From contig OY970065.1 of the NCBI GenBank assembly GCA_963705295.1, positions 1,824,001-1,888,000 on the forward strand: 64,000 nt of DNA, read 5' to 3'. Position numbers and translations under genes: made by a program. The DNA comes from Parachlamydiales bacterium (GTDB taxonomy: Bacteria > Chlamydiota > Chlamydiia > Chlamydiales > Rhabdochlamydiaceae). Below, piece by piece: positions 3,449 to 43,220 of this stretch (position 1 is the stretch's first letter; each line of letters starts with the position of its first letter). The notes beneath the pieces were generated by a model. It ran no database searches. It was not told the origin of the DNA and worked only from the letters and a program-made list of their open reading frames with translations.

Positions 3449-3586
3449 AGCTAGAATAAGTATGATAATGAGAATGAGTCCAATGATTCCAAATGGACCG
3501 TATCCCCAACCAGAGCTATATTTCCATCTTGGAATAGCGCCGATTAACAATAGAATCAGGATTACAATGAGTATTGTGCCTAACAT
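3431..3586 (-). CDS. DUF3309-family small membrane protein (51 aa)
   Basis: MLGTILIVILILLLIGAIPRWKYSSGWGYGP.G..G matches the family pattern; AGGAGG SD just upstream of the ATG at 3586. Confidence 0.85.
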   Translation of the reverse strand: MLGTILIVILILLLIGAIPRWKYSSGWGYGPFGIIGLILIIILILALLGRI

Positions 3587-3637
3587 AATTCCTCCTTCTA
3601 TTCTCATCACTAGCATAAAGGCGAATTATTCTATGCT

Positions 3638-3803
3638 TTATTAACCCGAAGGTCAAATAGTTAACAAAAGGGCTTAGCGAGGCAAAGCCAGATTGATTCT
3701 CGCGAGGAATAACATTCTTGAATACGAAGGATTCCGAGCGAGAATCGATATGGCGAAGCCACAGCAAGCATCTTTGTTAACTATTTGACCTTCGGGTTAA
3801 TAA
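3638..3803. mobile_element. 166-bp MITE-like palindromic element with perfect 31-bp terminal inverted repeats
   Basis: 3638-3668 TTATTAACCCGAAGGTCAAATAGTTAACAAA is the exact reverse complement of 3773-3803; the interior is also self-complementary (GATTCTCGC / GCGAGAATC, GGCAAAGCC, GGCGAAGCC). Confidence 0.7.
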
Positions 3804-4863: not shown

Positions 4864-4911
4864 AGGAAAATTATATATTCATCCGAGAAGCAAGTAAATA
4901 TCTAAGATAAT

Positions 4912-5018
4912 TTATCCTGCATATCCTGCCGCCGAAGGCGATCCTGCACATCCTGTTCTCCTAATATGGGATGACAGGATAAACAGGATCGCCTTCGGCG
5001 GCAGGATGTGCAGGATAA
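4912..5018. repeat. Intergenic palindrome (35-bp arms, 1 mismatch) built of ATCCTG units around GCCGAAGGC
   Basis: 4912-4946 TTATCCTGCATATCCTGCCGCCGAAGGCGATCCTG vs 4984-5018 CAGGATCGCCTTCGGCGGCAGGATGTGCAGGATAA; lies directly after the ligA stop. Confidence 0.9.
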
Positions 5019-5021
5019 GAA

Positions 5022-10246: not shown

Positions 10247-10277
10247 AAGAGGTCCATTATATCAGAATTTGTTTTAT

Positions 10278-10305
10278 TTGAGTTTTGAGGAAATTCAGGT
10301 ATAAT
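10278..10305 (+). promoter_or_regulatory. Putative sigma66/70 promoter giving a leaderless transcript
   Basis: TTGAGT-N16-TATAAT, then 6 nt to the ATG at 10312; no SD sequence. Confidence 0.45.
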
Positions 10306-10311
10306 GCTCCT

Positions 10312-11355
10312 ATGACAATACAATCTTTAAAACCTTTCGTTGCTTCTACAACTTTTTTTGAGAAAGCTGATCGTGTTACTAATTATTTGATTTTCCCAGC
10401 AGCCGTTTTAGGTCTTCATGCTCTGACTATACGTAAAACAAAAGACCGTTTAATAACTTACAGTGCATATTTTGCCATAACCTACGCTCTCCGAAAAATT
10501 TTTTCAGCTGCCATCGGTTACATGGTTTATCCAGCATGGCAGTACCCCGTGGACATGCTCTCAAGACTTGCTCATCACCATATCACGCAACTCAACGATT
10601 TTACAGTTCGAAATATTACCCTTTACAAGTCGGGTGTTCGCTATGCCGGTTTTGTGATTACAAAACCTGGGCTAGATCCAAAAAAATGGTCGATGCATGC
10701 GTTTGGAAATGCCATGGCGATGGAACATGCCATGTCGGAATATGCCAAGGAAAATGCAAACAATGGATGCAACACCCTTCTTCTCAATGGCCCGTCTGTT
10801 GGAAATAGTGGCGGTTTTCCGACGAGATATGCAATGGGGGCTGGCTTCGAGGCAGGAATGCAGTTTTTGGAAAAAGAAATGCAAGCAACCCATCTCATTT
10901 TCAATGGACTTTCTCTGGGCAGTGGAATGCTTTCAGAAGCAGTACTTTCCCACACATTCCAAACAAGAAAAGTTCGGTATTTGGCTATTTCCGATAGAAC
11001 CTTTGCCGATCTCGTGAAAATTGCGAAATTTTTTGTTCAGCGTGTCATAGGATCCCTGGGCAATCCTCTCTGTGACATCCTTTTTCACTTTAGCGGAACA
11101 AATTTAAGAGGGGTTGCCGCCGCACACAAATTAAGTCATTTAAGGATTCAGCAGATTGTTATCCAAAGTACTCTGAAAAATGACGGAGTCATACCCAAGG
11201 AGGCATCACTCCTCACCGCCTTGCGATCTACTTCACTGAGCCATTTTACACCCCTGGAATCTCCTGACATTCGTCATAATGATCCCCTTCCAAAGAATAT
11301 CCAAGAGCAATTGGACGGTGAAATCCGGGAGTTCCTTTCCCTACCTACCTTATGA
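10312..11355 (+). CDS. Alpha/beta-hydrolase-fold protein, chlamydial CHLPS 43-kDa-like family
   Basis: N-terminal hydrophobic segments, FGN, nucleophile elbow GLSLG, DRTF.DL, DGVI, C-terminal His. Confidence 0.55.
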   Translation: MTIQSLKPFVASTTFFEKADRVTNYLIFPAAVLGLHALTIRKTKDRLITYSAYFAITYALRKIFSAAIGYMVYPAWQYPVDMLSRLAHHHITQLNDFTVRNITLYKSGVRYAGFVITKPGLDPKKWSMHAFGNAMAMEHAMSEYAKENANNGCNTLLLNGPSVGNSGGFPTRYAMGAGFEAGMQFLEKEMQATHLIFNGLSLGSGMLSEAVLSHTFQTRKVRYLAISDRTFADLVKIAKFFVQRVIGSLGNPLCDILFHFSGTNLRGVAAAHKLSHLRIQQIVIQSTLKNDGVIPKEASLLTALRSTSLSHFTPLESPDIRHNDPLPKNIQEQLDGEIREFLSLPTL

Positions 11356-11357
11356 CA

Positions 11358-12209
11358 CTATTTCTCGAAGCGATCGAGGAAATAGGTCTTACCCTGTTCC
11401 AGTAATAGAGAGCCTACGCGCCGGAGTTTTTTATTTAAACGGAATGTTTTGAGCGGTTTTTTAAGTTCAAGAACGATTTCTCGTGTTTGGGCCGCGTGAA
11501 TGATAACACGCCGGAGGAGATGTTTAGACCACTCGAAATCAAGGGTGTCTCCTTCCTCTGTCTGGAGATGGATAAAGCGGCCGGCATGGAAGGTGCTCTC
11601 GGGAAGAAACGACCACTTAGAACCTTCTTGTTGGAAGAAAAGAGACCGAATTTTCCGGCTTCCTTCTCGGAGGAGCGCTAAAGGAGAAGTGAAAAGAATG
11701 GGTGAGAATCCCAGGTGATCTTTATCTTCAAGACGAGGAGATAAAATCCCTTCAAAGCCCGTTAAAAACAGCTGGTGAAAACACCGAATTTCCCCCTCCG
11801 TCGTTGTCTCAGGAACCATCTGTCCTAGCCGAAACCAGACAGGAAGGATTTCTCTAAGATCACCTCGACGACGAACGAGCTCCCAATCGAGTTTTTTGCT
11901 CATCCCGAGGGACAGTCTCTCTAAAGAAGTTGAAAAATCTGCCTCTTGATCGATTTTATGCTTCCGATACCCCTCCGCAGTGTGGCCATAAATCCAAACC
12001 ACTCCTTTTTCCAAATCGAGTTCAACGGTGAAGTTTGAAACAGGACCTTTCCAATCGAGTTTTTGTTCTCTTGTTTCGTGCGTGAGGAGATTTTCAAACT
12101 TTAAAACCGTCGGATAAGCGACAACCTTCCAAGAAGTCCAAGGAATCAAACAAGCCGTACCTGGCAAATGACAAAACGGGCGGAGTCGCTCAGCTATTTT
12201 GATTTTCAA
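11358..12209 (-). CDS. Conserved chlamydial hypothetical protein (CT865-like)
   Basis: RPF.H.PG..C.IP N-terminus, LSLG..K.LDW, FEWSK...RR, Y.LDRFEK C-terminus; position between glgB and mtaB matches recalled C. pneumoniae order. Confidence 0.65.
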   Translation of the reverse strand: MKIKIAERLRPFCHLPGTACLIPWTSWKVVAYPTVLKFENLLTHETREQKLDWKGPVSNFTVELDLEKGVVWIYGHTAEGYRKHKIDQEADFSTSLERLSLGMSKKLDWELVRRRGDLREILPVWFRLGQMVPETTTEGEIRCFHQLFLTGFEGILSPRLEDKDHLGFSPILFTSPLALLREGSRKIRSLFFQQEGSKWSFLPESTFHAGRFIHLQTEEGDTLDFEWSKHLLRRVIIHAAQTREIVLELKKPLKTFRLNKKLRRVGSLLLEQGKTYFLDRFEK

Positions 12210-13432
12210 GCAACCACTCTCCCGACAAGCCCTTCCGGCATATTTTTCAATGTCTCCACTTCAACCACCGTGTTTCTTGTTTCTTTGGAAAGACAATTAA
12301 CAGGGAGAAAATTTTCGGTATGACCAAACTCATCGGTCTCCATCAAAACCTTCACCCTTTTGCCGACGTACGCTTCTCTCATTTCAAAAGCGAGCTTTTC
12401 CGACTCGCGTAAAATCGCTTGCTTCCTCTCTTGGATTTCATCTTGAGAAACTCTCCCTGGAAATAATGCTGCCCTGGTTCTCAGACGAGGGCTATAAGGA
12501 AACATATGCACCTTCGCAAATCGAACGGTCCGCATCACTTCTAAGGTTTCTCCAAAATCGGTGCTGGTTTCTCCCGGAAATCCGACAATAATATCGGTTG
12601 TGAAGGTGAAATCAGGTGCCGCTTTCTTGAGCCGCTCAACGGTTTCTAAGAAAATCTGCTTCGTATACTTTCGATTCATCCGTTTCAATGTCACATTCGA
12701 ACCGGCTTGTAGAACGATATGGAGCGAATGGCATGTCTTTTTGCCCGACAAAATCGCATCCATGAGTTTGTCATCGACTTCATCCGGATCGATTGATGAA
12801 AGACGGATCCTTTCTAACCCCTCGATCTGGTCGACCGCCTGCACTAAATCAGCAAGTTTCTGCCCTTGATCTTCATAATCACCAATGTTGATTCCAGTCA
12901 GAACCACTTCCTTATATCCATTTTCAACAAGACCTTGCACTTCCTTCAGAATATCGTCTACAGATCGAGAACGAGATCGCCCCCGCACATAAGGAATAAT
13001 ACAATACGTGCAAAACGAATTGCATCCGTCTTGGACCTTGACGAAAGCTCTCGTGTGCGCTGAAAAATGATCGATCTTAAATTCCGGAAGTTCTTCTTCT
13101 GGAAAAACAACCGAGAGTAACTCTTCTTTCTTCTTATTGGAGACAACGTGCGTCACGCCTTCAATCGCCTGAATTTCCTCCGGCAGTCTTTCTGCCAAAC
13201 AACCGGTCACAATAATCGACGCTTCGGGATTTTTCCGATGCAGCTGCCGAATCTGCTGCCGGCTGTGACTGTCGGCCGATTCAGTGACCGTGCACGTGTT
13301 GACGATGCAAAGATCAGCCTCTTCCCCTTCTAAAACTTCCCGGTATCCGAGTCGTCTCAGCTGCGAGGCGTAGGCTTCCGATTCGTATTGGTTGGTGCGA
13401 CACCCTAATGTTGCAATTTTAAATTTTTTCAT
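12206..13432 (-). CDS. mtaB: tRNA t6A37 methylthiotransferase
   Basis: TLGCRTNQYES, NTCTVT, radical-SAM KVQDGCNSFCTYC, RGRSRSR, HMFPYSPR. Confidence 0.95.
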   Translation of the reverse strand: MKKFKIATLGCRTNQYESEAYASQLRRLGYREVLEGEEADLCIVNTCTVTESADSHSRQQIRQLHRKNPEASIIVTGCLAERLPEEIQAIEGVTHVVSNKKKEELLSVVFPEEELPEFKIDHFSAHTRAFVKVQDGCNSFCTYCIIPYVRGRSRSRSVDDILKEVQGLVENGYKEVVLTGINIGDYEDQGQKLADLVQAVDQIEGLERIRLSSIDPDEVDDKLMDAILSGKKTCHSLHIVLQAGSNVTLKRMNRKYTKQIFLETVERLKKAAPDFTFTTDIIVGFPGETSTDFGETLEVMRTVRFAKVHMFPYSPRLRTRAALFPGRVSQDEIQERKQAILRESEKLAFEMREAYVGKRVKVLMETDEFGHTENFLPVNCLSKETRNTVVEVETLKNMPEGLVGRVVA

Positions 13433-13815
13433 ATTAATAAAAGGGCCAAGTCATCCATCGTATCGGGATTTCGGACCAAATCTACAGAAAGATTACTTCC
13501 CAAACGCCTGGCAAAAATAGCGGCAATAAAAGAAGTTGCATTTAAGGCGATCGCAACCATCGGATCAAACGGTTTTTCGAGTGCAGCCATCACCAAAAGT
13601 CCACTCGCAATTCCAATGATCCTCGAGATCAACAGCGGGGCCAAAATTTCTTGATGCTCCTGTGCATCTTTATTCACTCGGGTTAAATATAAACCAACCA
13701 GTCCACTGATGGCTATATCCGTTCCGTTGTAAATTAAAGCATTCTTCTCAGGGATATTTCTAGAATAAGAAATTAATGCTCTTGAACAAACTGAAGCTAC
13801 GATTCCAATTGCCAT
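13429..13815 (-). CDS. Hypothetical small membrane protein
   Basis: 128 aa with several hydrophobic segments; TATAAT 6 nt upstream of the ATG; overlaps the mtaB start. Confidence 0.55.
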   Translation of the reverse strand: MAIGIVASVCSRALISYSRNIPEKNALIYNGTDIAISGLVGLYLTRVNKDAQEHQEILAPLLISRIIGIASGLLVMAALEKPFDPMVAIALNATSFIAAIFARRLGSNLSVDLVRNPDTMDDLALLLI

Positions 13816-13883
13816 GGGATAATTATACCCGTAATAAAGATAAATCTATAGACAAAATATTTCGTTGTCACTATGCATGGGAT

Positions 13884-30752: not shown

Positions 30753-31124
30753 ATGAACCTTAGAAAATATGCAAAAATTTTTGGTATTGTTTTAGCAGTC
30801 CTCGGGATTTTAGGATTTATTCCTGGGTTTACGAGTAACGATCATCTGCTGGGCATCTTCTTCGTGAACGGTTTTCTCAATTTATTCCATTTAGTGACGG
30901 GTATCATCGGCTTTGTTGTCGGGTCTGCCGGAACACGTCCTAGTAGATTTTTCTTTCAAATTACTGGTGTGGTCTATGGTGTCCTGGCTTTTGTTGGACT
31001 TGGGTTTGGATTCGGCTTTATTCTTGGTTTTATAGCCAATGATATGGCAGATAGCATCCTTCATCTCGTCCTTGCTTTGATCTCTCTGTATTTGGGATTT
31101 TTATTTAAGCAGGCCAAAGAATGA
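30753..31124 (+). CDS. DUF4383-like membrane protein
   Basis: GILGFIPG...LLGIF.VN...N..HL..G, AD..LHL; four hydrophobic segments. Confidence 0.75.
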   Translation: MNLRKYAKIFGIVLAVLGILGFIPGFTSNDHLLGIFFVNGFLNLFHLVTGIIGFVVGSAGTRPSRFFFQITGVVYGVLAFVGLGFGFGFILGFIANDMADSILHLVLALISLYLGFLFKQAKE

Positions 31125-31816
31125 TTTTAATCCGGAAGTCAAAAGACAGGGGTCATGCCAATTACAAATGGTTAGATAGCTACCATACGTTCTCTTTTTC
31201 CACATACCACGATCCTGCCCACATGCAATTTGGAGTGCTCCGTGTGATCAATGAAGATCGGATTGCACCATCGCGGGGATTTGACTTGCACAACCACGAA
31301 AATATGGAAATCGTCACGTATGTGATCGAAGGATCCCTGAAACACATCGACAATCTCGGTCATACAACGTTGATTCGAACCGGCGATGTTCAACGGATGA
31401 GCGCCGGAACAGGAATCGAGCACGGTGAATTCAATGGATCGGATAAAGATTTTGTCCACATGCTCCAGATTTGGATTTTTCCCGAGAAAAACGGTTTGAC
31501 CCCCAGTTATGAGCAAAAAAATTTCCCCGATCTTAAAAACCGCCTCTGTCTTGTGGTTTCAAAAAAAGGAGAAGACGGCTCTCTGACAATCCATCAAGAT
31601 GTCAAGATTTTTGCCTCCCGCCTTGAAGACAAAGAGATTGTGTATGAACCCAAGAGATCGGTTTGGATTCAAGTGATCGAAGGTCCACTGACGTGCAATG
31701 GAACTGTTTTGCAAACCGGCGATGGTGCTCAAATCACCGATGAGAACAAGCTTGTGCTCACTAGCCCCAAATCACATTTTCTTCTCTTTGATCTTCCGAA
31801 AGTACGTAGTAGCTAA
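31121..31816 (+). CDS. Pirin family protein (YhhW-like)
   Basis: RG.A...WL.S.HTFSF, LRVINED, H.H.NMEI.TYV, H.D, VQRMSAGTGI.H.E, LQIWI.P. Confidence 0.93.
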   Translation: MILIRKSKDRGHANYKWLDSYHTFSFSTYHDPAHMQFGVLRVINEDRIAPSRGFDLHNHENMEIVTYVIEGSLKHIDNLGHTTLIRTGDVQRMSAGTGIEHGEFNGSDKDFVHMLQIWIFPEKNGLTPSYEQKNFPDLKNRLCLVVSKKGEDGSLTIHQDVKIFASRLEDKEIVYEPKRSVWIQVIEGPLTCNGTVLQTGDGAQITDENKLVLTSPKSHFLLFDLPKVRSS

Positions 31817-32731
31817 TTCTATAGCACCTCTTGTAGCCGGGGTTTTTGCAAGACGATTCAGCATCATAAAATCATGGAACGTTCCTAAAAAGCGGACTGC
31901 AGTCACCTCCACTTCCGCCTCCATCAGTCGGTGGGCGTACGCCTCGCCTTCATCTCTTAAAACGTCATTTTCATCCGTGATAATCAAAGCCGGCGGCAGT
32001 CCCTGTAATTGATCGAGAGATGCATAGAGTGGAGACAGCAGCGGTTTTTTTCTGGAGGCATCATCGGGCTCATACGCATTCCAAAACCAGTGCATCGCTT
32101 TTTTCGTGAGCCATGGTCCTTGAGCAAACTCGTCGTAAGAAGCCGAATTCATTGCTCCACTTGTTACGGGATAGAATAACGCTTGAAAATCGATCTTGGG
32201 ACCATGTCTCTCTTTTGCTAGAAGAGTCACGCCAATGGCCAAATTGCCTCCCGCACTATCCCCAGCCACAACAAGACGCGACGTATCGAGATTCAGTTCT
32301 TTCCCATGCTCCGCAATATATTTTGTTGCAGCGTACGCTTCTTCTAAAGGGATGGGGAATTTCGCTTCAGGAGATCTGGAAAAATTGACGAAAACAACAG
32401 CCGCATTACCACCGACAGCCAGTTCGCGGGCAAGCCGGTCGTGGGTATTCATACTTCCTAAGATCCATCCGCCCCCGTGAAAATAAACAATTGGCATCAA
32501 TTTTTTCGTTCCTTGAGGCCGGAAAATTCGGAGAGAAATTTCATGGACTGGTCCGGGAATTTTTTTATCTTCAATCGCAACCTCCAATTTCTCTACCGGC
32601 TCTGATTGTAATCTTTCTAAAACAGCGCGCGCATCGGCTGGACTCAATGTGTAAAGAGGAGGCCCCTTGCCCGCGGACAACTCCTTGATAAAATTCTCCG
32701 CCGTCTTCTCCAAATAAATTGTTTTCGCCAT
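31772..32731 (-). CDS. Esterase/lipase of the HSL family
   Basis: YFHGGGW, GDSAGGN, D.LRDEGE.Y, H.F. Confidence 0.93.
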   Translation of the reverse strand: MAKTIYLEKTAENFIKELSAGKGPPLYTLSPADARAVLERLQSEPVEKLEVAIEDKKIPGPVHEISLRIFRPQGTKKLMPIVYFHGGGWILGSMNTHDRLARELAVGGNAAVVFVNFSRSPEAKFPIPLEEAYAATKYIAEHGKELNLDTSRLVVAGDSAGGNLAIGVTLLAKERHGPKIDFQALFYPVTSGAMNSASYDEFAQGPWLTKKAMHWFWNAYEPDDASRKKPLLSPLYASLDQLQGLPPALIITDENDVLRDEGEAYAHRLMEAEVEVTAVRFLGTFHDFMMLNRLAKTPATRGAIELATTYFRKIKEKKM

Positions 32732-32801: not shown

Positions 32802-33551
32802 ATGGCGACATCTTCTAACTGGCTTTATCTTTCACCCATTCTTGCTGGAGGACTTCGGGCTCTTGTTGGAACGCCACTCGATGCGGTTGCAACACGCGAA
32901 ATTCTCTTAGGAAAAAATACCTTCCAAGTGATGAAAGGGATGTCGGCTCGCGATTATTTTCGGGGACTTCAGCCCAATGGAGCGAAGTTTATGTTCAGAA
33001 CCCCTATGCAGTTTGCAGCTGTCCGCCTTTCTTCCCTCGTTGTACCAACACAGCTCGATGCAGCCGTCCGCGGTGTCTGCTTTGGTGTTTTAACCGGAGC
33101 CTTCGAAACAGTCGTTTTCAACGGTTGCAACTCACTCCGCACCCGCTTCATTCTAGGCAGTGGATGGAATGTGCTCAGGACAGAAGGACCTTCCGTCTTA
33201 ACGAAGGGCTTAAGCGCTGCTTTTGCTCACAGAGCCTTCAGCTGGGCTATTTTTCTCGCCATCTATGAAAAGTTAAGAGAAAACTACCCTTCTCACGGAT
33301 TTGCCGTCAGCACCGCCTCCGGCGCGATCCAAGTCATCTCCACCGCTCCGTTCTATATCGCCGCCATCGAAAAACAACGAGAGAAAGCTACGGCCGAAAG
33401 ACTCCACCGCACCCTTCTCAGACTCATGAAAACCCGTGGACTCATCGGCGGCCTTTTCCTCCCCGCCCTCGCTCCCCGCCTCATCCATTCCGCCATCACT
33501 TCAGCCCCCCTCCTCTGGCTCATGGAAAAACTCCAGCTCATCCATCGGTAA
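32802..33551 (+). CDS. Mitochondrial carrier family (SLC25)-like protein
   Basis: Three ~80-aa repeats: GTPLDAVATR...YFRGLQP; NGCNSLRTR...RTEG...LTKGL..........AIYEKLR; TAPFYIAAIEKQ...KTRG...LF....PRL. Confidence 0.75.
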   Translation: MATSSNWLYLSPILAGGLRALVGTPLDAVATREILLGKNTFQVMKGMSARDYFRGLQPNGAKFMFRTPMQFAAVRLSSLVVPTQLDAAVRGVCFGVLTGAFETVVFNGCNSLRTRFILGSGWNVLRTEGPSVLTKGLSAAFAHRAFSWAIFLAIYEKLRENYPSHGFAVSTASGAIQVISTAPFYIAAIEKQREKATAERLHRTLLRLMKTRGLIGGLFLPALAPRLIHSAITSAPLLWLMEKLQLIHR

Positions 33552-33568: not shown

Positions 33569-33826
33569 TCACCGATATACTTCTCTACGATGACCTATTT
33601 TTAGGATTAGAACAATGAGAGTATTTTCGAATACAGAATATAGAATGCGATAGTCTCCTTGTCTAACTCGATAAATATCATCGCTTCCGTGCATTTTTTC
33701 GCAGCCTGCAGGAAATGGATTTGAGGCTAACTTATCTACTCTTTTGGCTATTTTTTTCTGTTCTGATGGAGGGAAATAATCCAACTGCTTTTCAGCTGCC
33801 TTGCTAAATTGTATTTTATATTTCAC
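33569..33826 (-). CDS. RelE/ParE-family toxin
   Basis: Y.I.F...A.K.L, NP.P.G..K, YRVRQGDYRILY, IGHRREVYR; GTG start overlaps the antitoxin stop. Confidence 0.9.
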   Translation of the reverse strand: MKYKIQFSKAAEKQLDYFPPSEQKKIAKRVDKLASNPFPAGCEKMHGSDDIYRVRQGDYRILYSVFENTLIVLILKIGHRREVYR

Positions 33827-34095
33827 AATTTCAGCTTGCGTTTGATTGTTTCCCAAGAAAGAGATCCATTTTTCTTTACATCTATAAGCGCTTTTCTCGC
33901 GTCATCCAAATCAATTTGATTTTCTATTGCTTCTAACGCCTCAAGATCTTCAATGGAAACAATTGCAACAACTTTTTTCCCTTTTCTAGTGAGAACAGCT
34001 CTTTTACCAGCGTAAGCGACTTTATTGGCTATATCAGCTAAATGGCTTCTGGCATCCGAGAAGGAAAATTCTTCAGAATATGAAAATGTAGTCAT
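33823..34095 (-). CDS. Phd/YefM-family antitoxin
   Basis: SFSDAR.HL.......V......VLTRKGK...AIVS.ED; SWE.IK..L tail. Confidence 0.9.
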   Translation of the reverse strand: MTTFSYSEEFSFSDARSHLADIANKVAYAGKRAVLTRKGKKVVAIVSIEDLEALEAIENQIDLDDARKALIDVKKNGSLSWETIKRKLKL

Positions 34096-34114
34096 AATAC
34101 CTCAACTGAATAAA

Positions 34115-34140
34115 GTGTACCAAATGTACATTAAGTACAC
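34115..34140. promoter_or_regulatory. Palindromic operator of the Phd/YefM-RelE operon
   Basis: GTGTAC-CA-AATGTACATT-AA-GTACAC with three GTAC cores 9 bp apart, about 20 nt upstream of the antitoxin start; TGTACA cores are established YefM operator half-sites. Confidence 0.65.
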
Positions 34141-34248
34141 CATTGAAAACTGTATCCTACTGATTATCAATACTTTTTGCTTTATTCCGCTAGCACTTCT
34201 GATGGAAAAACTTGATAAAAAAAATCATTACGGTTAAGCAGGATTTAA

Positions 34249-35262
34249 ATGCAGACATACAAAGCCATTGAAATTACAACACCTGGCAAATTGAAGCTTG
34301 TCGAAAGATCTATCCGTCAGCCAGGGCGAGGACAAGTTCGTCTTCGTGTCGAAGCTGCTGGCATCTGCCATACGGATGTATTGGCTATAGAGGGGCAGTG
34401 GCCAGGTCTAAAATATCCGTTAGTTCCAGGACATGAAATCGCGGGTCGGATTGAAGCCGTCGGAGAAGGAGTTAACAACTGGAAAATAGGACAACGTGTC
34501 GGTGTAGGTTGGTTCGGTGGGCAGTGTTATGAGTGCGAACCGTGCAGGCGTGGAGATTTTGTAAACTGTATCAGACTCATCATTCCCGGATTTACGACAG
34601 ATGGAGGGTATGCCGAACTGGTCATTGTTGAAGCCAGAGCATTAGCATCTATCCCGGATGACCTCAGCAGTGAAGATGCAGCTCCTCTCACGTGCGCTGG
34701 TGTGACCACTTACAATGCACTCCGAAATGCCCAGCTTCGATCGGGAGATGTTGTTGCCATACAAGGCATCGGCGGTCTTGGACATTTAGCAGTTCAATTC
34801 GCCAGACGGATGGGTTTCTATACCGTGGCCATCGCCCGCGGTAAAGAAAAGGAAAAGCTCGCTCTAGAGCTAGGTGCACACAAGTACATCGATAGCACAA
34901 GCGAAGATGTCGCAGAGGCCCTCCAAAAAATAGGAGGCGCCCAAGCCATCCTGGCGACAGCCGCCAGCGGAAAATCGATGGGCCCCTTGCTCCCTGGCTT
35001 GAAGGCGCGGGGCAAACTGATCGTCATTGGCATTTCGGAAGAACCTATCGAGGTATTAACGCCTCAACTGATCGCCGGTACCAAAACCATTCAAGGCCAC
35101 GCCGCGGGGACCGCCATCGATATCGAAGACACCCTCAGGTTTAGCTTTCAACAGCACGTCCATTCTATGAATGAGGTTGTTTCTCTCGAAAATGCCCCCG
35201 AGGCTTACCTGAAAATGAAGCAAAATGCCGCCCGCTTCCGCATGGTTTTAAAAATAAGATAA
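34249..35262 (+). CDS. Zinc-dependent alcohol dehydrogenase (AdhP-like)
   Basis: GICHTD, PGHEIAG, structural Zn C..C..C.......C, CAGVT.Y, GIGGLG. Confidence 0.93.
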   Translation: MQTYKAIEITTPGKLKLVERSIRQPGRGQVRLRVEAAGICHTDVLAIEGQWPGLKYPLVPGHEIAGRIEAVGEGVNNWKIGQRVGVGWFGGQCYECEPCRRGDFVNCIRLIIPGFTTDGGYAELVIVEARALASIPDDLSSEDAAPLTCAGVTTYNALRNAQLRSGDVVAIQGIGGLGHLAVQFARRMGFYTVAIARGKEKEKLALELGAHKYIDSTSEDVAEALQKIGGAQAILATAASGKSMGPLLPGLKARGKLIVIGISEEPIEVLTPQLIAGTKTIQGHAAGTAIDIEDTLRFSFQQHVHSMNEVVSLENAPEAYLKMKQNAARFRMVLKIR

Positions 35263-35360
35263 GCATAATTTTAAATATCTCAAACTTTTGTTTTTACTGG
35301 CGACTTTGTTCTCAATTCATTAAAATTTAATCAATTTTTAAAATTACGATTTAATTCAAT

Positions 35361-38300
35361 ATGGCATCAGAAACACCTTCTCATTTGGCGAGAAAAAATC
35401 ACTTTAATTGCTTTGATTATGGAAAAGCATTACAAAATCTCGGCGAAAGTCATGAAAATGTTGATCCTGAAATAGGTCCTTTTGGGCTGACATTTCTAGG
35501 AATAAACAAGATGGGAGCATTTAAACGTCTCATCGATGAATTCGAAACTATTTTCATTGAAGCTGTCAGTGGTTCTGGAGAACTTCGCTCGCAATTACAA
35601 GCGAATTATACTCCTGAACGAGCTTTTCAAATTTACAAAGAGAACAAAGATCTATTCCAAAGATTGAGTGGCTCTGCTTATTGGTATATCCAAACAAGTC
35701 TCAAACTTGCCTCAGAAATTTTCTGGAAGGCGTTATCAGTTCCGGAATCAAATAAAGAAAAACTTCACGAATTACAAATTAAATGGCTACTCCATGCAGA
35801 ATGGGCACATCTATCTACACCTAATCTTTTAAAGGCTAGGGAATTATTACAGAAAATTAAAGCTTATGCTGAAGAGGCCAAAAAAGAGTTAGAATGGACT
35901 GAGGGAAAAAGGAATTTTAATCCTTTTCATATTTCAGAAATTGCAGTGCCTAAAATTCCTTATTTATCAAATCCACGCTCCGTTAAAAATCCTCTTCATA
36001 CTCCCTCTCTATTTCCGCAATTTAGTGAAAAATATCAAATTTACATCTCAAGCTTGATTAGCCAAATTTCAAGAGTGAATAAGTCACTCGCTGAAGCTAT
36101 GTTAGTCCGCTTAGAATTAGCTTCTGAATCTGAAGACTTACAATCAGATGATGTCCTTTTTGGTTGTGTAAAAAAAATTCAGAGCTTAGTAGATCCAAAT
36201 AGCTTTGGGAAATTAGGTCTTCCTGTAGATAAACCTAGAAAAACCCTCAATCGAGAAGCCTTTCAGGTTTTCCCTTTACACATTTTAGAATTTTCAGACG
36301 AAGTAACAAAAGCACGTTTAAACAATTTAAAGTGGATGCGCGTTGAAAATGGAATTCCGTGTCGACCCAGTAGTAATGATTCTAATCAACTCTGTTTGAC
36401 TTCTGCCTTTAAGAATCTTCTTATTGATATTCCATCCTATGTCCACCCGTACGATTTAGCTCTTTTTAATATCGGAATACATAATATTCAGTCCTGGAAT
36501 CAACGCATTTTCGGTGGATCAGCCTCCTTGGATTTTAAGCAGATTGATTTCTCAACTTTAAACCAATTCTTTTTGAACGTCTTTTCCTTTATTCAAAAAG
36601 CAGCACTGCAAACTCAACCTAATAATGGTTGGGCGCGATTATTAGGAGCAAAATTAGTTCAAGCTTTAGATTTTGCCAACCGTTTTTTAATATTTATTCG
36701 TACAAGAGAAAACACCCTAAACTTAAACATAAGTAGTGATTATGCACTTTTAATAGCCGGGATTAGAGATTTCTGTGATTTTGTTACAAGCAATATAAAC
36801 AATGAACCTGAGAAAAACAAAGCGATTATAAAGATTTTTGAAGAAACTCGAGAATCTCTAATTCACGAGTTCTTTGGTTTATTAAGAGCCCAAAAAATCT
36901 CAGATGTTGGAATGTTAGAAAACTGCTTAGATTTATTACGCTCCTGTATAGCAGCTGATCATCGCAATCATGTAGGTGTGATACAGAAACTTTTGTTCGA
37001 TAAAAATATTTCATCAATCACTCTGCAAGATATAAGAAAAGCTTTAGAGAGCCGTGCTTTTAATCTTCCAAAAGAAAAAATCTATTCAGAAATAAAACTG
37101 CTTTTAGAAACAGCCTATCTCTTGAGAAATAAAAAGTTCTCCCCTGCTCTGGTTCATATTTTCCAAGCATTTGATCTAGAATTTGAGACCTCTTTAGTAA
37201 AAACTTTAACGAGAGATAGTGAAGTTCGGATAAAAGCTTCGATAGCCCTTTTGGAAAATGTAGATTTTCAACTTCCTCTGGCGTATGCGGATATTTTAGA
37301 TGCGCTCACTTTTTTATCTAGTATAAACTTTCATGAACGGATTCTTTTTAACTTTATTGATCACTATTTAAAACATTTCAAAGGCGAAGATTTTAAAGCC
37401 TTAGATATGCTACTTCTAGTTAATTCCGAAGATCGAGTCAAAGCTTATTCACGGTCAAGACTACAATATCTGCTTCTAAATGACCCCTCATCCATCATTG
37501 ATGATGCAACAAAACAAGAATTTGAACGTATCTTTCAACGATTTCCCACACTTCGAGCAGAGTTGAGTGTGGATGTAACCCCCTTGCTTGAAGGCTTTAT
37601 TCAAGATCTTCCGAGGCAAATTGAAGAGAACATGCAGCTGCCCGAAAATGAGATACCCCTTTTCAAGGCTAATCGCTTAACACCAGAGCAGGCACTTGAG
37701 ATTGTTAGATTTTTCTTACCTTCCAAGCAAACTCCTTATTTAGAGAAAATTGACCAACCATTTTATTCTTATATTGAAGCGGTAATCACGGGGTCGGCTG
37801 CAGAAGAACTAATAGATAAATTTTTGAATCTTGTACTTTTTAATTTTCGAAGCTTTCCTGCATCGGAAAACTTCAGAAAAGAAGTAAGAAAATTGCTGGA
37901 GATCGTTGTATCGAGACCCTGGACCCCCTTCGGTCATCAATTATGCATACACTTTGATGTGGAGCCGCCTTATAAAATACTCAACCGATCTCGTGTTCAA
38001 ATACTCCGAATGTTACTGAATGATAAGGCCGTCGGCTCTAAGAAACTGCGAGATTTAGAAAAACTGACTCCAGGGTTAAAAGGAATTTCCGAATTTTATG
38101 GCTGCGAGAATACGGAAAAGGTTTTGGATTTGATCGAGCAATTTCTACAATATCCAATCTACCATTCTAATACTTTTGACCTACTACAAATTCATTTATC
38201 GGTGACATCTGAAACTTCCTCACAAAAATTCGATTTTCTTTCAGCCCAATTTAAGCAGCTCCTGCAATTTCAAACGAAGACACGTGCTACTCTCAAAGCA

Positions 38301-41300
38301 TTAAAAGAGAATAATTTTGGAGAATTTAGCAAATGGAGGGATGAACTTCATGTTGATATTGTAGGTCTGGATCAACCCTTACCAGCTATTTTGTATATCT
38401 ATCTCAACTTTTTGGAAGAACTAGAAGATGCACTGAGAAATTCAGTACGTTCTCAATCTGGAGATAAGAGCAAATATATTATTCAAGCTCTTAAAAAAGC
38501 TTATCCTACTTCAGAAAAAGAAATTTTCGAACGATGGTTAAATAGAAACAAAATTCCTAAAAGAGATTTTGAAAATTATTGTGTTGTTTTACAGCGGCTA
38601 AATCTCATAGTACAAAATGAGAATGAAATTCTGTCCATTTTCCAAACCATTTATAACATTAAAAGTCTGTATGCCTCTGATGAAGATTGGATTGTTAAAT
38701 TCCCCTTAAGCAGAGTTGATATCTGTTTAAACGTTCTTTCTCTAGACGAAAGAAGACAGCTTGCCAGCGCCCTTTCCCTCCTAAACGGGGCAAAGTATAA
38801 TATTGTCTCCAAGGATGCCTTAAGCGCTTTCAGACGACTCCTGTTAGAAGATACAGACAATCATCAAAAAGATTTAGATTTGCTCTCTGATGCCCATATA
38901 GTCGCAGAAGCTAATAAGAAATTTCAGAGACTAAGAAAAGAAGAGGAAAGGATCGCCTTCAGAGAAGAGTTGCAAAGAAAATACCACGATAGATCAAAAT
39001 TCCTAGAAACACTTTTTCCCATTTTACTGAAAGATTACGCGGCAGAAAATAGAAAACGAAACTTTTGGGAAGACCTAATAAGTGTGTTATTTCCAGATAT
39101 TTCAGGCGCCGAAGTTTCAACAAACATGCGTCGCATCGCCCATAGTTTTATATGGGGTCTCAGGCAAATAAGTCCCGAGATTTTCTCTCAATTGTTTAGT
39201 GAGGATGGTAGTTTAATAGGAGCTAAAAAATATAACCGTCATGTCGTTAATCCTGTGTATCATCTTGATCCTTCAATACCGGTTGGTCATGTCAAATTTT
39301 TCCCTGATTCTCCTGGTATTCAGGAAGCTGCTAGAATTGTTAGTGTTTTAGTCGAAAGTCCCATTCCTAACTCTGAGTTGTTAAAATTCCCAGCCTCCAC
39401 AGCCGGTCAGCAAGATGACTATCCCGTTCTTCTCAGCGAGCATAATGCAGGGCGATCACTTTTGGAAATTTGGAATCGAAATGAAAAAATAAAATTACAT
39501 TCTGCATCTTTTACCCGCGAATTTCTGCGTGTTTTATTAACGAGAGACCAAGATGGTCTACCGTCAAATTATAATCTCGATGAGGTTGAAAATTCCGGAA
39601 CCTACCGCTTGGTTTGCATTGAAGATGAAGCAGCTTTTGGAGATGTCGTATTGAAAGAAGGAAATGACCTCAAGCTCATGCTTGTGAGTGCCGTCTTGTG
39701 TTGTGATGAAATGAATCAACCTATTGATCCATCAGTACGTGCTTTTATTTTATCTCTCGATATCTTTAATTTCGTTAATCATTTCATTACAGATATTTCT
39801 CACTACAACAGCAAATTATCACAAACAGACAAAGGCTCTTGTTTCTTCGATCGAGCGGCGTGTGAATTTTGGGCAAAGCATAAAGATCATCCCGTGGCCA
39901 TAGCTTTCCCTTTCCTAGATGATAAGTTGGTAAGAGAAATGATAAGGGTCCTTTCGAAACTTCAGGAGCTCGTAGCCGCTCATCCACTTATCACTCATAT
40001 ACAAATCTTAAAAGCCATTTATCCAGAGTTAATTCCTTACTATGCCTCTGTACTAAAAGAAGCCATTAGTCCTAGAGAAAGGTTCGATAAGGTTCTAAAA
40101 AAGGGTCGTGGGAGTGAATGTTTGAAGGTCCATGGATCTTACATATCGACTCGGAATAATACGCAAATTTATTTATCGTATTTTGGCCATGTCCCCAATA
40201 CAAAGGAATTGACAAGACCCGAGGCTTTAGCTGGGGCCGTGGCTAAAGATGCCCTACTCAGTATTGAGAAACAACTAGAGGTCTTAAAACCCGTAAGGGT
40301 CGGTTTAGAACGAGGAGATAGCTCCGCCTTTAAACTACTACCCAACATTGATTTAAAAGAGAAGGTCTTAAATGGTATTCAAGGTTCTTGGCCGCCGCTC
40401 AAACTATCAAAACTCTCCCCTCAAATTCGAAGAGACGTCTTCCAAGTCTTGCTGGTAGGCGGATTTCATGTGTTAGATTTTTCTGATTGCTCTGACATAA
40501 CGACAGACGAGATCAAAGAAATTTTGAACAAAAATCCAGACTTGAGATCATTAAACCTCGCTTGCTGTCATCAATTAGATATTCCCCAGCTTGTACCCGT
40601 GATAGCTTCCGCGTGCCCTAACCTGGAAATGCTAAGATTAAGTATGCTGAACATGAGATATTTAGATTATGCAGGCGAGGTCCCTAAAAAAGAAAGATTA
40701 CGCGGACGACGCAATCCAATCAATCATGCATTTATACAGCGATGCTTCAATACTCTTGATTTATCTCAACCTTTTCAAACACCTTTGATGCTGCAATCTT
40801 CGGCTCCTTCGATGATAGACACTTGGCGGAGTGGGCCACTGTTCATTTTTAGAAATTTGAAGCACTTATACATCGATAATTGTACAAACTTGGAAAGTGT
40901 TGCTTTGGTTGCCCCTTCACTCGTACGATTACATGCTCGCGGCTGCACTTCTCTACAGAATTTAAAAATACTTACATTTCAGCAAAGCACCGCTTCGTTT
41001 GAAAATAGTAGATATTGTTTTGGGAATCCTTTTATTCCAGAACACGTTGAATTAAGTTGCTATGATAATCTTGGATCGCTTCCCCATTCACCGTCAATTT
41101 ATGCCCAGACAAAAGTCGATTCAATTAATCTCCATTTAGGCGAGGAAAAAATAACTTCCCTTGATTTATATATCTTTAACTATATGATTTCCTGGTTCCA
41201 TCCAATCGAAATTCGACTTATTGGCATTGCTAATCAAAATTACAATAATGAACTTTTGGAAAGTCTTTTCGCTTTACTGCAAAAATCAAAGCTAAAGGTC

Positions 41301-41585
41301 TCTTTTGATGAGTTAGACCCGTTCAACACTAGACAAGTCAGATTTCAAGAACTGCGTGAAAGGGAAATAGAACTGTCTCATCAAATAGACTTTTTTAATA
41401 AAGCAGCTCAAAAAGGATTTGCCGATGCCCAATATTGTTTAGGGCTATATTACAACAACCACCCAAATTTTCCAAATGCGAGAACTGCAGCAGTTAAATG
41501 GTTTTCTGAAGCTGCTAAGCAAGGACATGCTCGAGCTCAATCAGCTCTCCGTCGTTTTGATAAACAAGCTGAACTGTTAAATTAA
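35361..41585 (+). CDS. 2074-aa multidomain protein: atypical (PI3/4-kinase-like) domain, Cys-containing LRRs and a C-terminal Sel1 repeat; candidate effector
   Basis: HVKFFP..PG..EA, DQDG.PSNY, LVCIEDE.AF; LDFSDCSDIT, LRSLNLACCHQL, LKHLYIDNCTNL; AQYCLG.YY......AVKWF..AA.QGH..AQ..L. Confidence 0.6.
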   Translation: MASETPSHLARKNHFNCFDYGKALQNLGESHENVDPEIGPFGLTFLGINKMGAFKRLIDEFETIFIEAVSGSGELRSQLQANYTPERAFQIYKENKDLFQRLSGSAYWYIQTSLKLASEIFWKALSVPESNKEKLHELQIKWLLHAEWAHLSTPNLLKARELLQKIKAYAEEAKKELEWTEGKRNFNPFHISEIAVPKIPYLSNPRSVKNPLHTPSLFPQFSEKYQIYISSLISQISRVNKSLAEAMLVRLELASESEDLQSDDVLFGCVKKIQSLVDPNSFGKLGLPVDKPRKTLNREAFQVFPLHILEFSDEVTKARLNNLKWMRVENGIPCRPSSNDSNQLCLTSAFKNLLIDIPSYVHPYDLALFNIGIHNIQSWNQRIFGGSASLDFKQIDFSTLNQFFLNVFSFIQKAALQTQPNNGWARLLGAKLVQALDFANRFLIFIRTRENTLNLNISSDYALLIAGIRDFCDFVTSNINNEPEKNKAIIKIFEETRESLIHEFFGLLRAQKISDVGMLENCLDLLRSCIAADHRNHVGVIQKLLFDKNISSITLQDIRKALESRAFNLPKEKIYSEIKLLLETAYLLRNKKFSPALVHIFQAFDLEFETSLVKTLTRDSEVRIKASIALLENVDFQLPLAYADILDALTFLSSINFHERILFNFIDHYLKHFKGEDFKALDMLLLVNSEDRVKAYSRSRLQYLLLNDPSSIIDDATKQEFERIFQRFPTLRAELSVDVTPLLEGFIQDLPRQIEENMQLPENEIPLFKANRLTPEQALEIVRFFLPSKQTPYLEKIDQPFYSYIEAVITGSAAEELIDKFLNLVLFNFRSFPASENFRKEVRKLLEIVVSRPWTPFGHQLCIHFDVEPPYKILNRSRVQILRMLLNDKAVGSKKLRDLEKLTPGLKGISEFYGCENTEKVLDLIEQFLQYPIYHSNTFDLLQIHLSVTSETSSQKFDFLSAQFKQLLQFQTKTRATLKALKENNFGEFSKWRDELHVDIVGLDQPLPAILYIYLNFLEELEDALRNSVRSQSGDKSKYIIQALKKAYPTSEKEIFERWLNRNKIPKRDFENYCVVLQRLNLIVQNENEILSIFQTIYNIKSLYASDEDWIVKFPLSRVDICLNVLSLDERRQLASALSLLNGAKYNIVSKDALSAFRRLLLEDTDNHQKDLDLLSDAHIVAEANKKFQRLRKEEERIAFREELQRKYHDRSKFLETLFPILLKDYAAENRKRNFWEDLISVLFPDISGAEVSTNMRRIAHSFIWGLRQISPEIFSQLFSEDGSLIGAKKYNRHVVNPVYHLDPSIPVGHVKFFPDSPGIQEAARIVSVLVESPIPNSELLKFPASTAGQQDDYPVLLSEHNAGRSLLEIWNRNEKIKLHSASFTREFLRVLLTRDQDGLPSNYNLDEVENSGTYRLVCIEDEAAFGDVVLKEGNDLKLMLVSAVLCCDEMNQPIDPSVRAFILSLDIFNFVNHFITDISHYNSKLSQTDKGSCFFDRAACEFWAKHKDHPVAIAFPFLDDKLVREMIRVLSKLQELVAAHPLITHIQILKAIYPELIPYYASVLKEAISPRERFDKVLKKGRGSECLKVHGSYISTRNNTQIYLSYFGHVPNTKELTRPEALAGAVAKDALLSIEKQLEVLKPVRVGLERGDSSAFKLLPNIDLKEKVLNGIQGSWPPLKLSKLSPQIRRDVFQVLLVGGFHVLDFSDCSDITTDEIKEILNKNPDLRSLNLACCHQLDIPQLVPVIASACPNLEMLRLSMLNMRYLDYAGEVPKKERLRGRRNPINHAFIQRCFNTLDLSQPFQTPLMLQSSAPSMIDTWRSGPLFIFRNLKHLYIDNCTNLESVALVAPSLVRLHARGCTSLQNLKILTFQQSTASFENSRYCFGNPFIPEHVELSCYDNLGSLPHSPSIYAQTKVDSINLHLGEEKITSLDLYIFNYMISWFHPIEIRLIGIANQNYNNELLESLFALLQKSKLKVSFDELDPFNTRQVRFQELREREIELSHQIDFFNKAAQKGFADAQYCLGLYYNNHPNFPNARTAAVKWFSEAAKQGHARAQSALRRFDKQAELLN

Positions 41586-41629: not shown

Positions 41630-42031
41630 ATGGTTAAGCTATCGTTCTTTTTGGCGCCGGTGCAGGCGGGGTTTCCGTCGCCGGCGGATGATTATGTGGA
41701 GAAGAAGCTCGATTTGAATGAGTTGCTGGTGACCCATCCGGCTGCGACTTTTTTTGTGAGGGTGGAGGGACATTCGATGCGAGATGCTCAGATTTATGAT
41801 GGGGATGTGCTCATTGTCGATCGGTCGCTGCAGGCTGAAAGCGGATCGATTGTGGTGGCGATTTTGAGTGGTGAATTTACGGTTAAACGGCTGCAGAAGA
41901 AAAAAGACCGGCTGTTTTTGGTGGCCGAGAATCCAACGTTTGCTCCGCTGGAGATTTTACCAGAAATGGATTTTCAAGTATGGGGTGTTGTAACGTATGT
42001 CATCCACAAAGTACGCGTTAATCGATTGTAA
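41630..42031 (+). CDS. umuD: DNA polymerase V subunit UmuD (S24 peptidase)
   Basis: [36 protein letters not shown]. Confidence 0.93.
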
Positions 42032-43220
42032 TAATTTCTACGTTTCGTGCGAGCGGGTCTTTAATCCTAAATTAAGAAATCGGCCTGTCGTGATTTTGTC
42101 GAATAATGATGGGATCGTGATTGCCCGCTCTAAAGAAGCAAAAACTTTAGGGATCCCGATGGGTGCTGCTGCTTTCCAATGCAAAGAGATTTTTATAAAA
42201 CAGAGCGTGGTTGTTCGCTCTTCTAACTACACGCTGTACGGCGACATGTCGGAAAGGGTGATGATGATTTTGGAAGATTTTGGATTTCCGATCGAAGTTT
42301 ATTCGATCGATGAAGCTTTCTTAGAAATTCCGACCGATATCGAGCAGCACTTTGCTTCGCGGGTTCGGGCCCTGGTTCACCAATGGACGGGGATTCCTAT
42401 TTCGATCGGGATTGGAATCACCAAAACGTTGGCTAAAGTCGGAAGCGATCTTGCCAAAAAAAGAGATGACGGGGTGTTTGATTTTCACGACTCTAGCCAA
42501 GTTTTTGATACTCTTCCGGTGCAAGAGATCTGGGGAATCGGAGCGCGCATTGGCGCCTCTTTAAACCGGGTAGGGATTCACACCGTCCGGGAGTTGATCG
42601 AGTGCAACGACAGCTGGATTCAAAAATATTTCTCCGTAGCACTTCTCCGCACTGTTTTGGAACTCCGAGGGGTGAATTGTTTTGCTTTAGAAGAAATTCC
42701 CCCTCCAAAAAAAGGGATTATTTCTTCCCGTTCGTTTGGCCATGTTGTCACTTCGTTTGACGAACTCAAACAAGCTGTTGCTACGTTTACAGCCATTGCA
42801 GCCGAACGACTCCGCGCGCAGTGCTCGCTGGTTTCTCATCTGGGAGTTTTTGTCGTGGGAAAAGATCGATTCAGCCGCTCAGCAACGTGCTCTCTCCCTT
42901 TTCCAACGGCCTATACTCCTTACCTCATCACGCATGCTCACCGGCTTCTCTCTGAACTCCACCGCGAAGGAAACGGATACCGGAAAGCCGGCGTGGTTTT
43001 TAATAATCTCCTCTTTGAAAGTGAAACCCAGCTCGATCTCTTTCAAAACACCAAATCGACCGACTTTATCCATCTCGTCGATGCCATTAACCGAAAAAAA
43101 AATAAACGGGCTGTTTTCTTTGCTGCGGAAGGAATGTCGCCCTCTTGGAAACCGGTCTCCGCTTCTTGCTCCAAACATTTCACAACCCAGTGGAATGAAC
43201 TTTTAACTATTCGTATTTAA
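41997..43220 (+). CDS. umuC: Y-family DNA polymerase V subunit UmuC
   Basis: [56 protein letters not shown]-terminal S..FTT.W.EL. Confidence 0.95.

Follow-up and report, generated by a model that had tools for sequence, protein, structure and literature searches.

To our knowledge, mitochondrial carriers are treated as a eukaryotic signature, and activity has been measured for a single one from bacteria, a Legionella effector. The locus described here raises the question of what a carrier-like open reading frame (ORF) does in a chlamydial chromosome and how it came to be there. The ORF lies in a stretch of 64,000 nt (positions 1,824,001 to 1,888,000 of contig OY970065.1, assembly GCA_963705295.1, Parachlamydiales bacterium), here called the window, and positions are those of the window unless another locus is named (Table 1). 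An original prediction, made from the sequence letters, had read the ORF as a mitochondrial carrier-like protein in a chlamydial genome, derived from a host and used as an effector or importer. On homology and predicted fold, the ORF is a divergent homologue of the mitochondrial carrier (SLC25/MCF) superfamily. Judged by its residues, it would not be classed as a canonical SLC25 exchanger, because the matrix-gate and cytoplasmic-gate motif sets are both incomplete. No study of a chlamydial carrier was found in the full-text literature, which was searched by titles, starts of abstracts and passages, with subscription journals and supplements outside its scope.

The chlamydial setting is supported by an orthologue, syntenic and 65% identical, in a Parachlamydiales bacterium (another orthologue is labelled Verrucomicrobia), by at least four TLC/NTT nucleotide transporter genes and by one FHIPEP/SctV gene, an SctV-type export gate, in the genome itself, which is a single contig of 2.13 Mb with 43.8% G+C.

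Homology, repeat architecture and predicted fold

In Pfam the protein matched PF00153 (Mito_carr) in three stretches at 39.7 bits (curated cut-off 22.3; E 4e-10), and this was the only family matched at E up to 10, with no TLC domain (PF03219); no NCBIfam family was matched. Searched as a single protein against PDB sequences it matched uncoupling proteins only (UCP2 at 5.9e-5), and a profile of its family matched only UCP2 and UCP1 (E 5e-6 to 1e-5; UCP2 4.9e-6). All 30 feature neighbours in the ESM Atlas were Mito_carr clusters. For the individual repeats, a hidden Markov model (HMM) was built from 129 fully canonical repeats found in 100 generic carriers (260-400 aa), a selection biased to canonical repeats. 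This model aligned all three repeats of the protein, at 8.4, 32.1 and 5.8 bits for repeats 1, 2 and 3. The three tandem repeats that had been predicted are thus recovered both by Pfam and by the repeat HMM, and the motifs quoted for them were all located: PLDAVATR at residues 25-32, YFRGL at 52-56, GCNSLRTR at 108-115, RTEG at 126-129, LTKGL at 133-137 and PFYIAAIEKQ at 183-192. The description of repeat 1 as nearest to canonical and of repeats 2 and 3 as degenerate likewise agrees with the repeat HMM and with the conservation table described below.

The structure was predicted with AlphaFold2 from an alignment (A1) of 21 of the 22 proteins returned by a word-indexed search (below), the 157-aa fragment P0022 being excluded. 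The model (predicted local distance difference test, pLDDT, 86.8; predicted template modelling score, pTM, 0.83) consists of three long-short-long helix units, with six long helices (residues in Table 1) and short helices within each pair. When the model was compared with the PDB by Foldseek, the best 14 matches were all mitochondrial carriers, and cytoplasmic-open carriers (2.2e-5) outranked the matrix-open one (1.2e-2). Alignment by VIA-align placed 242 of the 249 residues on UCP1 (8hbv) at Z 22.4 and a root-mean-square deviation of 3.2; eleven carriers scored Z 15.7 or higher, and the next unrelated fold scored Z 7.2. The predicted structure is accordingly a six-helix bundle with three short matrix helices and three-fold pseudo-symmetry. 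The original prediction had held that lack of a Mito_carr match together with some other fold would count against it, and both parts come out for a carrier.

The compact family, its gates and its central site

Of 3597 candidates in the word-indexed search, 22 had E up to 1e-3, the window's own protein being one. The other 21 are 53-65% identical to it, any that are named are called hypothetical, and all 22 carry a precomputed PF00153 assignment. A profile search of 1.84 billion representative proteins gave 496 at E up to 1e-3 with a clear break in score: 21 family representatives extend down to E of about 1e-19, and generic carriers begin at 5.8e-13 (65 bits). Ten family members that were looked up were either without a name or a "hypothetical protein". 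Members score 28-57 bits with Pfam and have a median length of 254 aa (n=31, range 242-283), compared with 305 aa for 118 generic carriers, in keeping with the very short loops that had been predicted.

Among 60 genomes of relatives, 8 had a match; all lie within the window's family-level group (36 genomes) and none in the sister families (0/24). Within the genus, 7 of 18 genomes matched, including one (G003) whose copy has six in-frame stops. When 400 genomes sampled across the phylum were scored, 8 of them, the window's own included, had a member of the compact family (E 1e-90 or better), G003 had its pseudogene, and nine further genomes gave weak matches (1e-16 to 7e-6). The gene is intact in 9 genomes (G000, G001, G002, G005, G006, G010 and G018 of genus g1; G024 and G211 of two further genera) and a pseudogene in a tenth, all of one Parachlamydiales family; the pseudogene shows loss of the carrier in progress within the genus. 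A profile of six of the deepest members (P0029-P0039) found nothing closer than the known orthologues in 401 genomes of the order. In metagenomes, a scan with alignment A1 yielded four short contigs and a scan with P0030 alone yielded no relative.

Conservation was read from an alignment (A2) of 28 sequences, 29-65% identical to the query, from which fragments and near-duplicates had been excluded. Motifs were mapped by the repeat HMM and by helix register, the register of helices 2 and 6 being taken from helix lengths and the repeat HMM. Nine residues are invariant in all 28 sequences (R19, P82, H143, R144, S147, Q177, P183, Q192 and R226). The complete PX[DE]XX[KR]X[KR] motif is present in none of the three repeats, which read PxDxxAxR, GxNxxRxR and PxYxxAxE. 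On helix 3 the family as a whole has [G/P]108-x-N110-x-x-R113-x-R115, and the matrix-gate residues, including the substituted ones, are conserved (D27 in 25/28, A30 in 23/28, N110 in 23/28 and Y/F185 in 27/28). On what we take to be the usual carrier pairing, only one of the three matrix salt bridges, D27-R113, would be possible, together with one glutamine brace at Q192. The cytoplasmic motif [FY][DE]XX[KR] is complete on helix 4 only (Y155 in 27/28, E156 in 26/28, K/R159 in 20/28); helix 2 reads V-[K/R]-x-x-S, with a base in the place of the acid and a nearly invariant serine (S78 in 25/28), and helix 6 reads M-E-x-x-variable, with the acid kept (E/D242 in 26/28) and the base not.

The contact-point positions, taken as seven residues past the glycine of the [YF][KR]G motif, hold K/R62 (26/28), H143-R144 (28/28) and H229 (25/28), with R226 (28/28) one turn before the last. 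At the same level on the odd-numbered helices stand R19 (28/28), R90 (27/28), E/D102 (28/28) and Q177 (28/28). The central cavity thus appears to be conserved and strongly basic, unlike the pattern of a decaying gene. Contact points were also tried as a guide to the class of substrate and were set aside for this purpose, as the helix 4 H-R pair is not known to fit any carrier substrate class.

Orthologues are intact in 9 of 9 genomes. The least saturated pair gave nonsynonymous (dN) and synonymous (dS) divergences of 0.198 and 0.683, a ratio of 0.29; other pairs gave dN/dS of 0.07-0.46 where computable, dS being saturated or not computable. The intact orthologues, the dN/dS values and the residues kept invariant down to 29% identity indicate that the gene is functional and not decaying. 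The suggestion that lost salt bridges might make the protein an ungated leak goes too far, since the gate substitutions are themselves conserved and the residues of the basic central site are invariant or nearly so; low gating barriers in a transporter that still works would fit better. The compact carrier family of about 250 aa is unnamed, and reduced gates with a distinctive invariant basic site appear to set it apart.

Origin of the gene and its genomic slot

Carriers occur elsewhere in the phylum. From the nine genomes with weak matches, 11 carrier ORFs of 243-291 aa were extracted, all of which pass Pfam (49-118 bits); most keep recognisable PxDxxKxRxQ-type motifs, and two stand in tandem in one genome (G224). 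Tandem pairs, more canonical and of about 290 aa, were noted in G224 and G036 (Table 1). Against the family profile the other chlamydial carriers score 29-61 bits, no closer than eukaryotic carriers (up to 65 bits). In a quick tree of 91 rows (20 family, 11 other chlamydial carriers and the first 60 generic matches of 260-340 aa), the compact family formed one group with a Shimodaira-Hasegawa approximate likelihood ratio test (SH-aLRT) value of 100. A single split separated the family and all other chlamydial carriers from the rest (SH-aLRT 97 under LG+G4; 96 under LG+C20+F+G4 with posterior mean site frequencies, PMSF), with two unnamed metagenome proteins, P0101 and P0114, inside the chlamydial side. 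In a careful LG+G4 search on 48 rows (10 family, 8 other chlamydial, 30 generic), from which the longest branches, P0101 and P0114 had been excluded, the same split had ultrafast bootstrap (UFBoot)/SH-aLRT support of 100/99. The trees are unrooted, and their generic rows, most of them without a name, had been selected for likeness to the family profile. Twenty non-family profile matches were looked up, and those with names came from a beetle (SLC25A40), a ciliate (carrier), a mite and a fungus, which are the nearest named outgroups, and from an alga, a mussel (PMP34) and a yeast. This is a miscellany, from which no coherent eukaryotic donor emerges. We take the evidence to be moderate for a single ancient acquisition with later diversification within the chlamydiae, and good against a recent host gene. 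The apparent single chlamydial carrier clade bears on the age of gene traffic between chlamydiae and eukaryotes.

A transfer from the current host in recent time, or eukaryotic contamination of the assembly, would explain one feature of the ORF, its G+C content of 52.8% against 43.8% for the genome, a value reached by only 0.5% of 948 long ORFs. The excess, however, lies at codon position 1 (56.8% G+C) and fits an Ala/Gly/Arg-rich protein, whose composition is probably its cause. G+C at third codon positions (GC3) is ordinary, 8% of the 948 long ORFs being at least as high, and recent transfer by composition was rejected on this ground. The genome is moreover one 2.13-Mb contig with bacterial genes flanking the carrier on both sides, syntenic orthologues down to 39-45% identity are present in 8 other genomes, and among the 1.84 billion representatives there is no close eukaryotic relative, the best generic carrier reaching only 5.8e-13 (65 bits). 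Recent transfer or contamination is thus already contradicted, and we regard it as highly improbable. The term "host-derived" of the original prediction does not hold in its recent sense, the more so as the trees join the family to other chlamydial carriers and not to generic ones.

The ancestral order in the genus has citrate synthase and malate dehydrogenase on one strand and DUF4383, pirin, carrier, UmuD-like and UmuC-like genes on the other. In five relatives pirin precedes the carrier by 20-120 bp on a shared strand; it is directly upstream in 5 of 10 loci (G006, G010, G018, G001 and G002) and one gene away in G000, all in one genus, and the adjacency is absent in G005, G003 (the pseudogene), G024 and G211, the last two outside the genus. 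On the four metagenome contigs, pirin was upstream in one of three with upstream DNA and UmuD downstream in two of two with downstream DNA. The interval between pirin and UmuD holds the carrier alone in G006, G010 and G018, the carrier or its pseudogene with a MacB/ABC/HlyD/OEP efflux operon in G002 and G003, and an autotransporter in G004; in G005, G024 and G211 the carrier's neighbours are unrelated. The carrier is an occupant of a variable cargo slot, and its neighbours say nothing reliable about its substrate. Three candidate links were rejected: the DUF4383/pirin operon as a functional partner, its adjacency being confined to the genus and read as the border of the slot; malate dehydrogenase and citrate synthase as a hint of substrate, these being part of the same genus-level synteny and on the divergent strand; and the MacB efflux operon as a partner, found in G002 and G003 only. 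Promoter and terminator scans gave counts not above those of shuffles.

Other occupants of the slot in the window are listed in Table 1. The esterase between pirin and carrier was seen in this genome only among those examined, and its 3' end overlaps that of pirin by 45 bp (31772-31816). The ParE toxin/Phd antitoxin pair lies directly 3' of the carrier and convergent to it, the stop codons of carrier and ParE being 17 bp apart. This pair, the Zn-ADH gene and the 2074-aa ORF have no counterpart in the loci of relatives. The 2074-aa ORF has 33-41% G+C in 1-kb windows (genome 43.8%), matches no Pfam family at E 0.001 or better and shows sub-threshold hints of LRR and Sel1 repeats in its last 374 residues only; it has the appearance of a large orphan involved in host interaction, and it shares the carrier's slot. 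The UmuD/UmuC-like translesion pair at the right border, and ORFs at 15-1722 (+) of the window that match the LigD ligase and primase-polymerase pair of G211, amount to equipment for DNA-damage tolerance and end joining in an obligate intracellular bacterium.

Table 1. Coordinates of the carrier-like ORF, its repeats, the surrounding slot and related loci.
Feature	Locus	Position	Strand	Remarks
Carrier-like ORF	window	32802-33551	+	249 aa; ATG start, stop codon 33549-33551; Pfam Mito_carr and predicted fold
Repeat 1 (residues 1-82)	window	32802-33047	+	H1 5-36, matrix helix 40-53, H2 56-80; gate P25-x-D27-x-x-A30-x-R32; YFRG 52-55; K62 at contact point I
Repeat 2 (residues 83-163)	window	33048-33290	+	H3 87-117, matrix helix 123-134, H4 137-161; gate G108-x-N110-x-x-R113-x-R115; EG...TKG 128-136; H143-R144; Y155-E156-x-x-R159
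Repeat 3 (residues 164-249)	window	33291-33548	+	H5 166-191, matrix helices 201-219, H6 223-243; gate P183-x-Y185-x-x-A188-x-E190-x-Q192; invariant R226; H229
DUF4383	window	30753-31124	+	ancestral left border of slot (30753-31816, with pirin)
Pirin	window	31121-31816	+	ancestral left border of slot
Abhydrolase_3 esterase	window	31772-32731	-	Pfam 241 bits; between pirin and carrier
Cargo between carrier and UmuD	window	33569-41585		the following four ORFs
ParE	window	33569-33856	-	toxin
Phd	window	33823-34095	-	antitoxin
Zn-ADH	window	34249-35262	+	
2074-aa orphan ORF	window	35361-41585	+	
UmuD-like S24 peptidase	window	41630-42031	+	ancestral right border of slot
UmuC-like Y-family polymerase	window	41997-43220	+	ancestral right border of slot
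MacB-type tripartite efflux operon	L036 (G002)	9793-13871		pirin-UmuD slot
MacB-type tripartite efflux operon	L037 (G003)	3047-6762		pirin-UmuD slot
Carrier pseudogene	L037 (G003:C14)	about 6800-7450		5 TGA and 1 TAA in match; syntenic, beside efflux operon
1159-aa autotransporter	L039 (G004)	5240-8719		PF03797, 118 bits; pirin-UmuD slot without carrier remnant
Tandem carrier pair	L021 (G224)	384-1250 and 1339-2202		
Tandem carrier pair	L023 (G036)	1474-2349 and 2371-3012		

Transport, location and comparison with known systems

Hydrophobicity was scored as the mean of the six best 19-aa Kyte-Doolittle windows. The 33 family members averaged 1.11, compared with 1.27 for 100 generic carriers and 1.08 for the 11 other chlamydial ones; the best single window of the query reached 1.51, against 2.1-3.0 in three NTTs of the same genome. 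The family thus shows no shift towards the values of membrane proteins native to the bacterium. Lysine and arginine (K+R) number 14 on the matrix-side loops and 1 on the other side, a bias that fits either membrane, positive-inside being normal for mitochondrial carriers also. At the N-terminus (residues 2-12) the fraction of S/T/P/N/Q is 0.55 (genome mean 0.26; 8% of 1152 ORFs are as high), which is a weak hint of export. A passage of a 2026 review (PMC12981334) describes moderately hydrophobic transmembrane effectors as escaping the signal recognition particle (SRP) and being secreted directly, as for substrates of the type III secretion system (T3SS).

The reading that we favour, tentatively and at somewhat less than an even chance, is a low-barrier transporter of an anionic metabolite that is exported to a host-derived membrane. 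The protein would be a working, strongly diverged minimal (about 250 aa) SLC25/MCF homologue from an old, chlamydiae-specific carrier radiation. It would bind a small, multiply anionic metabolite and move it by alternating access and, with low barriers at its gates, would probably work less as a strict exchanger than as a uniporter or facilitator. Export by the type III system and post-translational insertion into a host-derived membrane form the weakest step, proposed because the helices are far too weakly hydrophobic to be like those of the genome's own inner-membrane transporters and because injected effectors are the only bacterial carriers so far characterised. The mitochondrial inner membrane, reached by the host's own carrier import route, would be the most likely target and the inclusion membrane the alternative; in a host membrane, the carrier would shift the host metabolite pool in the bacterium's favour. 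The SctV-type export gate of the genome, and the fact that the slot elsewhere holds an autotransporter or an efflux pump, both accessory cargo, are consistent with such a role. The working model is LncP, the secreted nucleotide carrier of Legionella, in the published description (PMC3252375) a secreted bacterial carrier that reaches the mitochondrial inner membrane and there performs unidirectional ATP transport as well as exchange.

Several points weigh against this scheme. Secretion, location, substrate and transport are all predictions. Weak hydrophobicity is natural in carriers and shows only a lack of adaptation to a bacterial membrane, not export. The N-terminal composition is weak and unspecific, with only 5-12 residues before helix 1, and a T3SS substrate with six helices would be unusual. 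The "anionic metabolite" is read from charge, and the H-R pair is not known to match any substrate class. Long-branch attraction may have contributed to the chlamydial clade in the trees. The close packing in G002 and G003, with 7 bp between the gene and a MacB-type envelope efflux operon and about 20 bp between it and pirin, resembles that of everyday bacterial housekeeping genes. For Babela (phylum TM6), a passage of the published account (PMC4378268) takes its carriers, by annotation only, to be the bacterium's own uptake transporters "with unknown specificity".

The last two points would suit a carrier that works in the bacterium's own inner membrane, its positive "matrix" loops facing the bacterial cytoplasm, where it would import or export an anionic metabolite alongside the NTT transporters; if so, no earlier example of a carrier fold with a native function in a prokaryotic membrane would precede it. 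We consider this possible, if doubtful. It would account for the strong positive-inside bias (14 K+R against 1), for a locus that is chromosomal and vertically inherited, and for the tight same-strand packing with DUF4383, pirin and the MacB/HlyD/OEP efflux operon in G002 and G003, and it has a parallel in the Babela annotation (PMC4378268, in the passage cited). The bias, however, is normal for mitochondrial carriers too and so cannot tell the readings apart; the neighbours vary within the genus and are not kept beyond it (0/2 genomes). All six helices fall short of the bacterium's own membrane transporters in hydrophobicity (best window 1.51 against 2.1-3.0 in NTTs), and in this respect the family does not exceed generic carriers. 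The characterised bacterial precedent, as described (PMC3252375), is moreover a secreted effector.

Loss of transport altogether, with the fold kept as a scaffold, insertase-like groove or regulator, is suggested by the degeneracy of the gates: the complete matrix motif is found in none of three repeats and [FY][DE]XX[KR] in one of three even-numbered helices, and the family's Pfam scores (28-57 bits) are lower than those of the 11 other chlamydial carriers (49-118 bits). Some degenerate eukaryotic carrier relatives may act otherwise than by transport. A bacterial case is the carrier-like effector Lpg1137 of Legionella, a very divergent carrier homologue for which the article text (PMC5621508) gives a reported non-transport activity. 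Against such a pseudo-carrier stand the residues at the expected substrate-site positions (R19, H143, R144, Q177 and R226 in 28/28; K/R62 in 26/28), the gate elements that survive (one possible matrix salt bridge, a glutamine brace and the cytoplasmic motif of helix 4), and the close resemblance of the model to a cytoplasmic-open carrier (Z 22.4), and we hold it to be unlikely. A broader history can be proposed, which strikes us as somewhat unlikely when taken in full: one ancient uptake by chlamydiae, several subfamilies, and the 250-aa, gate-reduced branch as the extreme case, a low-barrier anionic uniporter acting outside the known carrier settings, whether in the bacterium's own membrane, in the inclusion membrane or in host mitochondria after type III injection.

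If the compact family transports, it would show chlamydial access to a metabolite pool beyond that of the NTT transporters, and on the broader history just proposed it would form a second, carrier-based arm of chlamydial metabolic parasitism beside them; the family is a testable candidate for a new way in which chlamydial parasites tap host metabolism. As a naturally minimised carrier, with one putative matrix salt bridge and one complete cytoplasmic motif, it would then also offer a direct test of the salt-bridge-network model in terms of exchange versus uniport, and a natural "minimal carrier" with which to ask how far the gates can be reduced within the fold.

With the eukaryotic SLC25 proteins the compact family shares Mito_carr, three repeats, and six transmembrane and three matrix helices, and it has basic residues where their substrate contact points align. 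The nearest solved structures are UCP1 (8hbv/8g8w), UCP2 (2lck) and the ADP/ATP carrier (4c9q/1okc), with Z of 22.4 for UCP1 and 18-19 for the ADP/ATP carrier; solved carriers are 11-16% identical to it in sequence. It differs from them in being about 50 residues shorter and bacterially encoded, in having only one possible matrix salt bridge of three and a complete cytoplasmic motif on helix 4 only, and in the invariant helix 4 H-R pair. Other chlamydial Mito_carr proteins, uncharacterised so far as the literature search shows, belong to the same phylum and group with the compact family in trees, but are of 243-291 aa, have mostly recognisable motifs and are sometimes in tandem (G224); the one relevant statement in the literature searched, in PMC5621508, mentions a few Chlamydiales carriers listed by Pfam.

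LncP is likewise a carrier-family protein of an intracellular bacterium that grows in amoebae, the likeness being drawn from the published description and not from sequence. It differs in that, as described (PMC3252375), it has the three-fold signature motif, and in being delivered by a type IV system, whereas only a type III-like export gate was found here. Lpg1137 is also a bacterial carrier-fold protein with degenerate repeats, but according to the same article text (PMC5621508) it lies outside the Pfam model; the compact family passes that model and has cavity residues conserved as in a transporter. The NTT/TLC proteins (PF03219), of bacterial origin according to a passage of PMC3252375, are functional analogues, being membrane transporters of metabolic parasitism, but have an unrelated fold of 12 helices with strongly hydrophobic segments.

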